Positions 3,498-10,809 of a stretch of 10,809 nt of DNA are shown piece by piece. Under the pieces are notes generated by a model that saw only the letters and a program-made list of their open reading frames with translations, did no database searches and had not been told where the DNA came from. The stretch comes from Candidatus Hermodarchaeota archaeon (GTDB taxonomy: Archaea; Asgardarchaeota; Hermodarchaeia; Hermodarchaeales; Hermodarchaeaceae): assembly GCA_016839365.1 (NCBI GenBank), contig JAEOUH010000015.1, positions 1-10,809 on the forward strand, read 5' to 3'. Every line of letters begins with the position of its first letter. Position 1 is the first letter of the stretch. Both the position numbers and the translations under genes were made by a program.

Positions 3498-4319
3498 TTG
3501 ACCGTTCACAGCTTCTATGTAGTCGGATTACGGGAAGGCTTTCCCCTCTATAGTCGAAAGTGGTCCCAATCTGATGTCGACAGTGCCCTCCTTTCGGGTT
3601 TTTTAGCCAGTATGGAACACATGGCTCAACAAGTAGCTGCACAACACGTCAACGTCGTGAACATGAAAGATCGCCGGTTTTTCTTCCAAATCGATGAACA
3701 AAACGGTTTACTCCTCGTCTTCATCACCGACGTAAGCGAAAGCCCCGCCCGCTTCCGCAAGTACCTGGGCATCCTGAACAAGAAATTTGTGAAAATGTTC
3801 AAAAAGCAACTCGATGAGCTCCACGAAAACGGCACCACTGATACAAACCTCTTCAACAGCTTCGATGAGTTCATCGACGACCTTGTTCTTACATGGTGGA
3901 TGGGGGAGACCACTATCTCTGCCGCTAAGGTGATGGATGTCTTCGAAGTGTTCACGCTCTTCTTCAACACCATTCTACAACGGTTCCTCACCGATGTCAC
4001 ACGCCGAACCTATGGCAAGGAAATTCAGCGACTCTTTGAAACCAAAATGAAGAAAATCCCTGCCCTTACTGGCATTACAATCGACAAAACCGGCGTCGTT
4101 ACTTACGAATCCATTGACCCTCAGCAAGTCAAATACACGCAATTCCGGAACGTTCTTTTCGACATCTTCCATGAGTTAATGGTACTCACCCGCAAAACCA
4201 TGCCCAAACAAACGTACCGCTCCCTAGTCTTCGAGCACATCAGCCCTCTCATCCGAACCGAACAAGACCGGATGAAAACCTATTCTCTGACAGAAAAAAT
4301 CGTGATGGAAATACTATGA
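3498..4319 (+). CDS. Longin-domain protein (N-terminal longin fold plus helical C-terminal extension)
   Basis: SFYVV..GFPLYSR / DSALLSGFLASMEHMA / RFFF..GLLLVFITD / LNKKFVKMF..FNSFDEFID fits the b-b-a-b-b-b-a-a longin pattern. TTG start; ATGA overlap with the GTPase. Confidence 0.75.
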   Translation: MTVHSFYVVGLREGFPLYSRKWSQSDVDSALLSGFLASMEHMAQQVAAQHVNVVNMKDRRFFFQIDEQNGLLLVFITDVSESPARFRKYLGILNKKFVKMFKKQLDELHENGTTDTNLFNSFDEFIDDLVLTWWMGETTISAAKVMDVFEVFTLFFNTILQRFLTDVTRRTYGKEIQRLFETKMKKIPALTGITIDKTGVVTYESIDPQQVKYTQFRNVLFDIFHELMVLTRKTMPKQTYRSLVFEHISPLIRTEQDRMKTYSLTEKIVMEIL

Positions 4320-4870
4320 GTAACCCCACCGAAAGCACCACCCAGCCAATCGCTACAAGACGCCCCTACACACACATCGCCAAAGCCGTCGTTATCGGCG
4401 ATGCTGCCGTCGGAAAAACCAGCCTCCTAGTTAGATATGTTAAAGGCTTATTTAATCCAACTTATATCTTAACAATTGGGGTTGCATTTCATGTTAAAGA
4501 TATTGTTTTAGGTGAAAATGTTCTCCGGTTGCAGGCGTGGGATACGGGGGGTCAGGAACGGTTTGGTCCAATTCGACAGCTCTATTATCGTGGTGCTAAA
4601 GGAGTTCTTATGGTATATGATCAGTCGAACCCTGAATCTTTCAATCGGGTTGATTATTGGTTGAATGAGGTAAAACGGGGTTGTGGGGATGTGCCTTTGG
4701 TCCTTATCGCTAATAAGTCAGACCTTCCTGAAAAGGTGAAAACCGAAGAAGGGCGGAAGAAGGCCGAGGAACATTCGATGGTGTTCGTCGAGACCAGTGC
4801 GAAGGACGATACGAATGTTGACTTCGCGTTCTCGGAATTGGCAAGGATAATACTGAATCAGAGTGGTTAG
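4316..4870 (+). CDS. Rab-like small GTPase (Ras superfamily)
   Basis: G1 GDAAVGKT, G2/RabF1-like TIGVAF, G3 WDTGGQERF, RabF4 YYRGA, G4 NKSD, G5 ETSAK; no C-terminal Cys prenylation motif. Confidence 0.95.
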   Translation: MSNPTESTTQPIATRRPYTHIAKAVVIGDAAVGKTSLLVRYVKGLFNPTYILTIGVAFHVKDIVLGENVLRLQAWDTGGQERFGPIRQLYYRGAKGVLMVYDQSNPESFNRVDYWLNEVKRGCGDVPLVLIANKSDLPEKVKTEEGRKKAEEHSMVFVETSAKDDTNVDFAFSELARIILNQSG

Positions 4871-7486: not shown

Positions 7487-8983
7487 TCAATGAATCGGCA
7501 GCACTTTCTTAATGAACTCTGTTAGTTTGGTGATTTTGATTGGTTTTTCTTCACCGGTTTTCATGTCACGGACATTCACAGATTTCTCCTCAAGTTCTCG
7601 CGGTCCAACGATGATAACAAGGGGAATCTGCCGTTTTCCTGCATCATCTAGATGCTTAGTCAGTGACCATGAAAAACCGTTGAAAATAGTTCGAATTCCC
7701 TCGGTTCGGAGTTGTGAGGCGATTTCGCGACAGGTACGCAATTGTTTCTTTGTAACAGCGGCGAGATAAACATCAGCTGGGGGGTCAGGTGGTGGAAGCA
7801 AGTTCATTTCCTCCGCCAGCTCCAATATCACCGTCTCACCGAAACCAAATCCAGTTCCTGGCAGGCGTTGACCTTCAAAGATACCAACGAGATCATCATA
7901 TCGTCCTCCACCTGCAATGGCTCGGGGCAGTCCACTACTCCGGTCCCAGGCTTCAAAGACGATACCCGTATAGTAGTCTAGCCCACGCGCAATTCCGGCA
8001 TCAAATTCACACACATCAGTGATTCCTAAATCCTCTAACTGAGTCGCTAGTTGACGTAGGGGATCCAGGGCTTTTTGTGTAGCTGTGTCCAAGGAAAACT
8101 GTTCCATTTTCTGAATGAACTCTTTTGGCGTTCCCCGAATCGCGGAGAATTCTGTGAGTTGCTCTGCTGCTTGTAAGTCCACTCCGGCTTTTCTAAGTGC
8201 CTTGATCAACGCCTTACTTTGAAGTTGAGGTAGATTAGCTTTGAGTGTGTCAATCAGTTTTGAACGGGGAAGTTTGGGCTCTTCTTTTTGTTTTCCAATG
8301 AAGAAATGTCGGAGTTTGAGAGCGACTTCCTCGGCTTTCTTCGCGGAGGTACCGCCCTTTATCAGTTGGTCTACAATTGCTTCTTGTAATATTTTTTCCC
8401 GTCGGTCTAAGACGCGGATAATGTCGATGTAGTTAGTAAGCCCTAGGGATTCGATGAAGCTTTGAACTAACCGGCGATCATTGATCCGGATGACAAAATC
8501 AGCTGGCGTAAAATTCAGACTTAGAATGATTGCAGCGAGTACGTTTATGACCTCTGCGTCGGCGGCGATGTCTTCTGTGCCTAAGATGTCGACATTCAAT
8601 TGCCAAAACTCTTTGACCCGACCTCGTTGTTGTGTCTCGTCTCGAAAGACACGTGAAATCGAGAACCACCGGATAGGACGCGGGTAATACTGCTGTTGGG
8701 CGGCAAGCATACGGGCTAGTGAAGGTGTGGTTTCCGGACGAAGGACTAGTTCCCGTTTCTTCCGATCAGTGACTTTGAAGGTCTCCTCAACTAGGGATGG
8801 CCCAGATTTAAGCTCGTACAATTCTAAGGGTTCAACTGTTGGGCATTCATACTCGATATAACCGAACATTTTTGGAATCTGACGAAAGGCTTGGAGTATC
8901 CGATCAATCCGCTGATAGAGTTCCGGGTAGAAATCCCGAAATCCACCCACTGCAAGGTCTTTTCCGCGTTTCATCGTCACCAA
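7487..8983 (-). CDS. hisS: Histidine--tRNA ligase
   Basis: LRPETT, motif 2 FRDETQQRGRVKEFWQ, ARGLDYYTG, AGGGRYDDL, GFGFG and a C-terminal anticodon-binding domain. The start could be ATG 8974. Confidence 0.95.
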   Translation of the reverse strand: MVTMKRGKDLAVGGFRDFYPELYQRIDRILQAFRQIPKMFGYIEYECPTVEPLELYELKSGPSLVEETFKVTDRKKRELVLRPETTPSLARMLAAQQQYYPRPIRWFSISRVFRDETQQRGRVKEFWQLNVDILGTEDIAADAEVINVLAAIILSLNFTPADFVIRINDRRLVQSFIESLGLTNYIDIIRVLDRREKILQEAIVDQLIKGGTSAKKAEEVALKLRHFFIGKQKEEPKLPRSKLIDTLKANLPQLQSKALIKALRKAGVDLQAAEQLTEFSAIRGTPKEFIQKMEQFSLDTATQKALDPLRQLATQLEDLGITDVCEFDAGIARGLDYYTGIVFEAWDRSSGLPRAIAGGGRYDDLVGIFEGQRLPGTGFGFGETVILELAEEMNLLPPPDPPADVYLAAVTKKQLRTCREIASQLRTEGIRTIFNGFSWSLTKHLDDAGKRQIPLVIIVGPRELEEKSVNVRDMKTGEEKPIKITKLTEFIKKVLPIH

Positions 8984-9028: not shown

Positions 9029-9183
9029 TGGTGCCGGGACAGGGATTCGAACCCCGACCTAAAGCTTTCTGCATCCCATCTTTGAAAATGGGCTTCCACA
9101 GGCTTCAATGCTACCATTGCGCCTGGGCAAATACCAGTTTACACCTTCGGGATCCAGTGAAGATACACTGGAATAATCCCGGC
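9029..9183 (-). tRNA. tRNA-His(GUG) with three BHB introns (8/9, 15/16, 37/38); CCA encoded
   Basis: Exons 9183-9176, 9145-9139, 9116-9096 and 9066-9029 splice to the 74-nt cloverleaf GCCGGGA TG GTGT AATGGTA GCAT T GAAGC CTGTGGA GCTTT AGGT CGGGG TTCGAAT CCCTG TCCCGGC A CCA. U8, A14, G18G19, the A15:U48 pair and the TTCGAAT loop are all correct. An oligo-T run follows. Confidence 0.92.
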
Positions 9184-9224
9184 ACGGTGCCCCGGCACGA
9201 GGAAATGTTGAAACAAGCCCTCCC

Positions 9225-9238
9225 ACAAAAAGCTTTCC
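9225..9238 (-). promoter_or_regulatory. Putative BRE/TATA-like promoter of tRNA-His
   Basis: Minus strand GGAAAGCTTTTTGT; same AAGCTTTT core as upstream of aIF1 and DUF4430. Confidence 0.4.
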
Positions 9239-9339: not shown

Positions 9340-9648
9340 CTATGCGATGTCGATATTATCGGAGGGGAATCCCAGATTTGCTAGGATGTCTTTGATGTTG
9401 TAACGGTGGTCACCTTGAAGGACAATGATCCCGTCTTTTGCACTCCCTCCGCACGCACATTTCATTTTTAATTTTGTGACGAGCTCGGATAGTGAAATGT
9501 CTCGGCTGTTAATGCCTTCAATAAGGGTGACTTCTCGTCCCCATTTTCGTCTTTCGACGCTAATTTTTATTCGCTGCTCGGTCTTTGCCAATTCTTGGCA
9601 GCGACAAATGTCTTTGGGCAAACTGCAAATCGGACAAATTTCTGACAT
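9340..9648 (-). CDS. sui1: Translation initiation factor aIF1 / SUI1 homolog
   Basis: N-terminal CPICSLPKDICRC, RRKWGREVTLIEG, LKMKCACGGS, LQGDHR; GAGGT SD. Confidence 0.95.
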   Translation of the reverse strand: MSEICPICSLPKDICRCQELAKTEQRIKISVERRKWGREVTLIEGINSRDISLSELVTKLKMKCACGGSAKDGIIVLQGDHRYNIKDILANLGFPSDNIDIA

Positions 9649-9695
9649 TATTTACCTCGTAAAATTATGGTACTATGGGGTATCGAAGTTTTACC

Positions 9696-9707
9696 TTATA
9701 AAAGCTT
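9696..9707 (-). promoter_or_regulatory. TATA box upstream of aIF1
   Basis: Minus strand AAGCTTTTATAA about 50 nt upstream of the ATG. Confidence 0.5.
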
Positions 9708-9771
9708 ACGCAATGGCTTGTAGGGACTAGAAGCTTTGAGTAATAGTCTCGAGAACTAGTCTAATGGGTGG

Positions 9772-9987
9772 TTACCTTGCAGTCAGCTTCTTAATGATCT
9801 GCGGACGCTCTTTGTACATAATACGGGCTCCGCAAAAAGGACACTTACTGGATGGTAGGGTCGTAGCAAATGGTTTGCCACAGTGGGGGCAGCGGTTGCT
9901 AGGTGGCATTGAGGGAACTGGGGTCTGGCAATAGGGGCACGAGAGGGTTTTTCCGCATTTAGCGCATCGAAATGTTATCTTGGGCAC
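9772..9987 (-). CDS. rpo12: RNA polymerase subunit Rpo12 (RpoP) with an inserted second zinc ribbon
   Basis: FRCAKCG ... KCPFCGARIMYKERPQIIKKLTAR is the RpoP signature. GTG 9987 is preferred over ATG 10017 because TTTATTAA (10035-10028) lies too close to that ATG; the start is uncertain. Confidence 0.85.
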   Translation of the reverse strand: MPKITFRCAKCGKTLSCPYCQTPVPSMPPSNRCPHCGKPFATTLPSSKCPFCGARIMYKERPQIIKKLTAR

Positions 9988-10057
9988 CTCGAAAAATATG
10001 TGACTGCTAGACGGCATCTCCCATCGCTTAATAAATCTTGCTTAGTTCTAGTCTGAA

Positions 10058-10168
10058 TTAGGGCAAGATAAAGGGTAGACTGAGAAGGATAATTCCAACA
10101 ATCACGCTACCTAAGATTAGTATGATTAGAATTATCGCAATGAGTAGATTTTGTTGTTTCTTCCTCAG
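10058..10168 (-). CDS. Putative 36-aa single-pass membrane microprotein (CTG start)
   Basis: (M)RKKQQNLLIAIILIILILGSVIVGIILLSLPFILP*; CTGA overlap with the Get3/ArsA stop; GGTGA SD 6 nt upstream; fills the intergenic gap. Confidence 0.65.
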   Translation of the reverse strand: MRKKQQNLLIAIILIILILGSVIVGIILLSLPFILP

Positions 10169-10809
10169 GGTTTGTCACCACTCTCTGGAAGTAATCCGGT
10201 TGTTAGGAGGTTGGCCAGGCGGGTTAATGCAGGAATCCCACGAATCTCATCTTGGAATAATGGAACCTCAGTAATGGTGAAGTCGTCATAAATATCGTTA
10301 ATTTGACTGAGATATTGGGTTTGCATTGTTTTTCGAGCTTTACAAAAACTACAATCCGGAATATCCGGAAACACCATATTCACGATAATATGGCTGCTGG
10401 GAATCTGGAATTCATACAGAGTTTGTAGGAGCCGCTCGGTCTCCGATACTGCCATGGCTTCAGGTATCATAACAATGACAAAGCTAGTCCGCGTCGGATC
10501 GGTGAGCTCAACTCTAGCCTCGTTAATGGCTACCTTGAGGTTTTCCAGATTTTCTAAGGAGTTATCTTCTTCCTTTGAGTCACCACGCCCAAATAGTGAT
10601 TTTAATCGTCCAAACATACTACTGAACCGCATCCGAAACTTGATGAGTTTTCCAAAGAAACTATCAAGCATTTCAGGCAAGCCTAATAAACGAAGGGTGT
10701 GGCCTGTCGGTGCAGTATCGAAGACAACCAAATCGTAGTCACACTCATGGATAAATTCCAGCACCTTGGAGAACGCAAGGGCTTCATCAGATCCAGGAGC
10801 AGACATGTC
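10165..10809 (-). CDS. Get3/TRC40-like ArsA-family ATPase (5' part outside the window)
   Basis: APGSDEALAF, FDTAPTGHTLRLL, Met/Phe-rich helical insert (IKFRMRFSSMFGRLKSLFG), IPEAMAVSETERL, VNMV, CSFC (CxxC), EIRG. Confidence 0.9.
   Translation of the reverse strand, partial: DMSAPGSDEALAFSKVLEFIHECDYDLVVFDTAPTGHTLRLLGLPEMLDSFFGKLIKFRMRFSSMFGRLKSLFGRGDSKEEDNSLENLENLKVAINEARVELTDPTRTSFVIVMIPEAMAVSETERLLQTLYEFQIPSSHIIVNMVFPDIPDCSFCKARKTMQTQYLSQINDIYDDFTITEVPLFQDEIRGIPALTRLANLLTTGLLPESGDKP

Follow-up and report, generated by a model that had tools for sequence, protein, structure and literature searches.

A three-intron tRNA-His gene upstream of hisS

The window, which is the whole 10,809-nt stretch of DNA analysed, carries on its minus strand (9183-9029) a tRNA-His(GUG) gene interrupted by three introns. 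Exon 1 (9183-9176, 8 nt, tRNA positions 1-8) is followed by intron 1 (9175-9146, 30 nt, position 8/9), exon 2 (9145-9139, 7 nt, positions 9-15), intron 2 (9138-9117, 22 nt, position 15/16), exon 3 (9116-9096, 21 nt, positions 16-37, with the anticodon GUG), intron 3 (9095-9067, 29 nt, at the canonical 37/38) and exon 4 (9066-9029, 38 nt, positions 38-76), which encodes the discriminator A73 and the CCA end. A run of five T (9028-9024, minus strand), a possible terminator or processing signal, lies directly 3' of the CCA; T- or pyrimidine-rich runs likewise stand 3' of the gene in its orthologues. The four exons are colinear within 155 nt, and the gene was rejected as a split or permuted tRNA.

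A sequence-only reading of the window had proposed these exons and introns, and its coordinates, bulges and inner stems hold for all three. Each intron is bounded by 3-nt bulges around a BHB central helix in which four of four pairs form: CGGG/CCCG at intron 1 (four Watson-Crick pairs, with C3-G6 supplied by exon 1), GTGT/GCGC at intron 2 (two G-U) and CTGT/GCAG at intron 3 (one G-U). Cutting after the second bulge base in each motif yields, as had been read, a 74-nt cloverleaf, which ARAGORN calls tRNA-His(gtg); partly spliced forms give nothing or the wrong isotype (Thr or Pro). The expectation that standard callers would miss the gene was borne out for ARAGORN and Rfam, as the raw window returns no ARAGORN gene and no Rfam tRNA at E<=1. 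The junction of intron 1 is fixed uniquely by sequence. Intron 2 could slide between 13/14 and 15/16 and intron 3 between 37/38 and 38/39, and BHB geometry alone fixes both. Because G9 faces G18, BHB 2 has no exon-side outer helix and is a relaxed motif.

Comparison with relatives agrees with this structure. The 27 complete orthologues, parsed from loci retrieved via HisRS homologues, all splice to 74 nt. Intron 1 is missing precisely at the predicted junction in four of them (G015, G016, G018, L242), as is intron 3 in four (G016, G017, G018, L245); intron 2 is present in 27/27, and no orthologue free of it was found among them. An intronless, non-orthologous tRNA-His (L123) matches the spliced gene letter for letter at the exon 2/3 and exon 3/4 junctions. 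The exons are nearly invariant (exon 1 wholly so, the parser being anchored on its 8-mer), whereas the introns vary with their stems kept; in introns 1 and 3 the inner stems vary greatly in sequence and yet fold. That of intron 2, CTGG/CCAG, by contrast hardly varies. The 37/38 intron of L110 (G015) and L242 differs in sequence from that of other orthologues; their clade also holds three relatives without this intron, and loss followed by regain is possible.

The gene is present in 17/19 genomes of the family, one copy each, and directly upstream of hisS in the loci examined, a synteny kept in the orthologues. A scan with exon 3 matched the gene in Hermodarchaeota-named records, including Ca. 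Hermodarchaeum yapensis, and a metagenome scan with a 16-mer gave mostly chance matches and five Hermod-type loci. Whether the genome holds another tRNA-His was a question raised with the first reading. BLAST with the spliced product matches well only here, and neither that search nor a T-arm-based survey, which recovered 33 tRNAs with encoded CCA, found a second His gene in the 83.66%-complete genome. An ARAGORN 'His' call on contig C54 reads by eye as a tRNA-Ile(GAU) with a D-loop intron. Two further calls, 'Phe(aaa)' and 'Ser(aga)' (contigs C41 and C43 of G000), read as tRNA-Gln with 15/16 and 37/38 introns. It is conceivable that the locus is unprocessed or degenerate and that another tRNA-His is in use, since the genome is incomplete and the case is known from sequence alone; the near-invariant exons beside variable introns with preserved stems, the fixed place beside hisS, the single copy across the family and the reassignment of the C54 call make this most improbable. 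The three introns are almost certainly spliced out, and the locus is best explained as a functional tRNA-His(GUG) gene of a Hermodarchaeia archaeon.

[quoted passage not shown] The genome encodes two EndA paralogues. EndA alpha (186 aa) is closest to EndA of Aeropyrum pernix (E 6e-46), possesses the Tyr/His/Lys catalytic residues and has K41 where Lys44 of the crenarchaea-specific loop (CSL) stands; the beta paralogue (196 aa) is without the catalytic His. RtcB and RNase P RNA were also found. A CSL with Lys44 gives EndA a broad substrate range (PMC3241643). The EndA-type removal assumed in the first reading is thus plausible, given an alpha subunit with a CSL-type loop, a beta subunit and RtcB. 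The best explanation is that an (alpha-beta)2 EndA would cut all three introns and RtcB would join the exons, with the enzyme genes present and the reaction taken from established archaeal splicing. Cloverleaf, BHB geometry, orthologues lacking intron 1 or 3 and host enzymes together place the gene among the BHB intron-containing archaeal tRNA genes.

Around the tRNA, the plus strand at 3498-4870 carries a gene for a Longin-like protein (weak PF19036) that overlaps one for a Ras/Rab-family small GTPase, a typical Asgard eukaryotic-signature pair. Upstream of the tRNA, 9340-10809 on the minus strand encodes a SUI1 protein (PF01253), an 81-aa zinc-ribbon protein resembling the RNA polymerase subunit Rpo12, and an ArsA/Get3-type ATPase whose gene runs off the contig. 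Directly downstream of the tRNA, on the same strand, lies hisS for histidyl-tRNA synthetase (7487-8983; PF13393, PF03129). The encoded HisRS is long (about 495 aa) and has the motif-2 loop FRDETQQRGR; its closest proteins outside the family are labelled mostly Heimdallarchaeota (43-47%). In the relative G006, hisS (G006:C2:13029-14502) lies in two frames with a frameshift near codon 157, perhaps an assembly error.

The acceptor end of the tRNA is unusual for its isotype. It has A73 (window 9032) and no encoded G-1, position -1 being T (window 9184), as in all orthologues except three with A or C. Thg1 (PF04446) was not found in the 19 family genomes, which are 72-91% complete. Canonical tRNA-His identity, either G-1:C73 or a Thg1-added G-1 opposite A73, does not describe this end. 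The G-1-less tRNA-His of Caulobacter crescentus and its divergent HisRS (PMC3064791) share with the pair described here A73, the lack of an encoded G-1 and a divergent synthetase; the present tRNA differs in being archaeal and in having C72 rather than U72.

A copy of the 5' acceptor strand in the leader

Directly upstream of exon 1 lies a 13-nt leader insert (9198-9186, minus strand). It consists of a copy of the 5' acceptor strand, GTGCCGGG (9198-9191, minus strand; positions -2 to 6), the proposed stand-in partner of the 3' acceptor strand, and a 5-nt spacer, GCACC (9190-9186, minus strand), which is complementary to exon 2 (G9-U13) and pairs there in the predicted precursor fold. The first reading was right about introns and cloverleaf and overlooked both this copy and the A73 end without G-1. 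The duplex of leader and 3' end is worth -18.5 kcal/mol, against -1.2 to -10.5 for the 27 other tRNAs of the genome. Among all 28 the copy is unique to tRNA-His, and the other 27 show no intron before position 10.

The copy follows the 8/9 intron through the family, being present in 23/23 orthologues with the intron and 0/4 without it. Every deep branch of the HisRS tree has members with intron and copy; the four orthologues lacking both share a single clade (support 100/100) with one orthologue that has them. The association thus amounts to one or two joint losses and not to 27 independent trials. The insert is 12-16 nt long and its spacer varies in sequence. The copy is invariant in the 23 orthologues except for C3/T3, a variation that retains the pair with G70, so that all changes in the copy keep pairing with the 3' strand.

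The copy should be transcribed, since a conserved promoter-like motif lies upstream of it. A putative archaeal promoter, a BRE-like GGAAAG followed by a T-rich TATA-like box (9224-9238, minus strand), is conserved in the 27 orthologues, 40 nt (25 orthologues) or 39 nt (2) upstream of the 5'-most acceptor-strand copy; the consensus was taken from PMC6640164. A start exactly at the first G of the copy was considered; the promoter spacing would put the start about 0-8 nt upstream of it. A sigma-70 promoter scan was set aside as not applicable to archaea.

In principle the insert could itself be an intron, the fourth of the gene and a very short one, at 3/4 or 4/5 of the acceptor stem, with the upstream copy then supplying the mature 5' end. 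Removal of the 13 nt restores the gene in any register, and in this genome a four-pair helix can formally be drawn from the self-complementary CGTG (3/4) or GTGC (4/5). Precedents exist, as 3/4 introns occur in Thermoproteales (PMC4090602) and a 13-nt intron is listed in Atabeyarchaeia. However, the required helix costs 11-20 kcal/mol here and 7-27 across orthologues, whereas 0.3-8.6 suffices for the three introns proper when the precursor is intact, and it is broken in several orthologues (G008, L237, L240, L244). This reading would also place U3 in the mature tRNA of 8/23 orthologues, G001 and G005 among them, in an acceptor stem that is otherwise invariant. A formable, conserved BHB around the insert was not found, and we regard a fourth intron as improbable.

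Folding of the precursor and order of intron removal

We propose that the leader copy is a stand-in strand that aids removal of the 8/9 intron, a reading that sequence comparison and folding models make reasonably likely. The central helix of the 8/9 intron has to draw on C3-G6 of the acceptor stem, and the tRNA's own 3' strand would compete for these same bases. The copy (-2 to 6) would instead pair with the 3' acceptor strand, and the spacer could pair with exon 2, so that the true 5' strand could form the cleavage motif with intron 1. Once the exons are joined, that strand would have to displace the copy, and RNase P would remove the leader; this hand-over is the weakest step of the proposal, and tertiary folding would have to pay its cost. 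A strict order of introns would not be needed, with a mild preference predicted for removal of intron 2 before intron 3.

Equilibrium folding is consistent with the first part of this scheme. With the native leader, the 8/9 central helix of this genome has a probability of 0.97, which falls to 0.63 when the copy is replaced by A, to 0.74 when the spacer is replaced and to 0.01 when both are replaced or deleted. Medians for the 23 orthologues run from 0.86 (native) through 0.67 (spacer replaced) and 0.05 (copy replaced) to 0.001 (both replaced) and 0.0005 (both deleted). These models suggest that copy and spacer each contribute to the 8/9 helix, which without the leader is improbable because it loses out to the acceptor stem. 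In six orthologues (G001, G005, G017, L238-L240), the helix has a probability of 0.03 or less even with the leader. Shuffling the G-rich copy hardly altered the cost of the helix in this genome (3.0 to 3.2 kcal/mol); it is a poor control, since shuffled G-rich 8-mers together with the spacer still stabilise the fold, and poly-A replacements of copy and spacer were used in its place. Such equilibrium models take no account of folding during transcription, when the intron hairpin is already in place before the 3' end has been made.

The hand-over is the weak point of the stand-in proposal, because the model still prefers the copy after splicing and the switch costs energy. In the fully spliced model the copy remains favoured in the acceptor stem (probability 0.97), and passing from the copy to the true strand costs 2.6 kcal/mol here and 1.3-6.0 in relatives, the highest value being that of G008.

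Exon 2 is common to two motifs. G9 belongs to a bulge of BHB 1, and G10-U13 serve both as outer-helix partner in BHB 1 and as central helix of BHB 2. Ordered splicing had been suggested from this sharing. The shared 7-nt exon is confirmed, and in the folding models the two motifs probably form one at a time, but the folding energies set no fixed order for introns 1 and 2. Helix 2 costs 4.6 kcal/mol with intron 1 in place and 5.9 without it, and helix 1 costs 3.0 with intron 2 and 3.1 without; a strict sequence of intron 1 then intron 2 is unsupported by these costs. Removal of intron 2 eases helix 3 from 2.2 to 0.5 kcal/mol, as exon 3 is a potential pairing partner for the 3' half of this intron. 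Between that half and exon 3 (9138-9096) the fold predicts two 5-bp helices, which include bases that BHB 3 needs. That closely spaced introns are removed sequentially is already a known idea (PMC8450103).

Near-5' introns in other Asgard families and known systems

A pattern blind to the leader (tRNA-Thr-like genes interrupted behind position 8) was applied to 301 genomes from the phylum, and 42 of its matches were retrieved, most of which are not tRNAs. The true matches are tRNA-Thr(CGU) genes, with an 8/9 intron in six genomes of one family and a 9/10 intron in five of another. All 11 have an acceptor-strand copy in the leader, extended in one case to pair with the CCA end. One of the 8/9 loci shares its coordinates with a published Freyarchaeia gene and presumably comes from that genome. 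In the eight that were folded, the leader/3'-end duplex is worth -14.6 to -18.4 kcal/mol and replacement of the leader drops the helix probability from 0.05-0.99 to 0.03 or less. A leader copy beside a near-5' intron is thus found in three lineages and two isotypes. Upstream of the leader copy, two of the tRNA-Thr(CGU) loci (L263, L264) repeat the 5' end of the gene and the start of the intron once more, as a longer tandem copy. In tRNA-Thr(GGU) of L277-L279 (G052, G104, G043), an acceptor-like 8-mer lies about 47 nt upstream of a second one with a hairpin between them, an arrangement that misfits an 8/9 BHB.

These genes bear on a different account of the copy, in which the introns are real and spliced and the copy is a duplication relic: when the gene acquired its 8/9 intron, one block entered the original gene start behind position 8. 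Alternatively it could have another role, for example as promoter or start site, with the BHB forming co-transcriptionally unaided. The promoter is as far from the copy as it is from the true gene start in insert-free orthologues, as a single insertion or deletion predicts; the losses number only one or two, and the shuffle control is weak. Against this, positions 4-6 of the copy are invariant while HisRS of the family has diverged to about 66% identity and while the spacer and intron loops vary across the same family. Copies also recur, with different sequences, in the unrelated tRNA-Thr genes of two other families, one of them reaching to the CCA end. We consider a relic or another role rather unlikely.

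If the stand-in reading is extended to the other families, Asgard tRNAs whose first intron lies at 8/9-9/10 would depend on a leader strand that acts as an RNA switch, evolved more than once and later discarded. We give this broader rule slightly better than an even chance.

The three-intron architecture itself is known in Asgard archaea. The first reading held multi-intron tRNAs to be best known from Thermoproteales; several introns per gene do occur there, but the statement is overstated for a host that is an Asgard archaeon, a group in which they are documented (PMC11291895; bioRxiv 10.64898/2026.10.13.758758). Introns interrupt 92-95% of the tRNA genes of three complete Asgard genomes, with more than half of all tRNA genes carrying several, and Supplementary Data 4 lists genes with three and four (PMC11291895). 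The 2026 preprint describes up to five insertions per gene and reports that tRNAscan-SE misses those in the D-arm (bioRxiv 10.64898/2026.10.13.758758). The rarity claimed for both near-5' positions stands for 8/9 and not for 15/16. By coordinate subtraction, the 121 genes of the table in PMC11291895 contain seven introns at 15/16 and one at 8/9, the sole listed 8/9 case being a three-intron Freyarchaeia tRNA-Thr(CGU), and both tRNA-Gln genes of the present genome carry 15/16 introns (by eye). Multi-intron tRNAs of Atabeyarchaeia, Freyarchaeia and Jordiarchaeia share with this gene short BHB-type introns, several per gene, D-arm positions, escape from standard callers and two EndA paralogues. 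The main text of the preprint has no match for Hermodarchaeia and the preprint none for 'leader'; no leader element was found in the passages of PMC11291895 consulted.

Thermoproteales, with their (alpha-beta)2 EndA and CSL (PMC4090602, PMC4033280, PMC3241643), likewise have up to three introns, relaxed HBh' motifs, a CSL-type enzyme with a Lys44 equivalent and sequential removal (PMC8450103). They differ in that 8/9 and 15/16 are not among the example positions of the review and that an acceptor-strand copy in the leader was not found described. Split tRNAs of Nanoarchaeum equitans and Caldivirga offer a likeness to the leader, as a flanking leader there helps to form the BHB at an exon boundary (PMC4033280). 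In those systems complementary leaders join separate transcripts and belong to the cut motif (PMC4033280), whereas the tRNA-His would be one transcript whose leader is proposed to act by occupying the competing strand. A limited literature search on duplicated acceptor strands in leaders found no description of such a copy. The candidate stand-in strand, put forward from sequence and folding models, was thus not found in the literature searched.

With its three introns the gene is a further example of a trait already described for Asgard archaea, and a tRNA that neither ARAGORN nor Rfam detects is brought to light. The leader copy is of more consequence. According to the literature, introns are retained at sites that allow a BHB; an 8/9 BHB, however, has the acceptor stem as a competitor and in folding models should not form. 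A stand-in strand would be a concrete, testable rule for introns at 8/9, and it hints at how such introns originate, by a duplication that took in both the intron and the 5' end of the gene. If true, the leader copy would assist tRNA splicing in cis and account for which near-5' positions can host introns.
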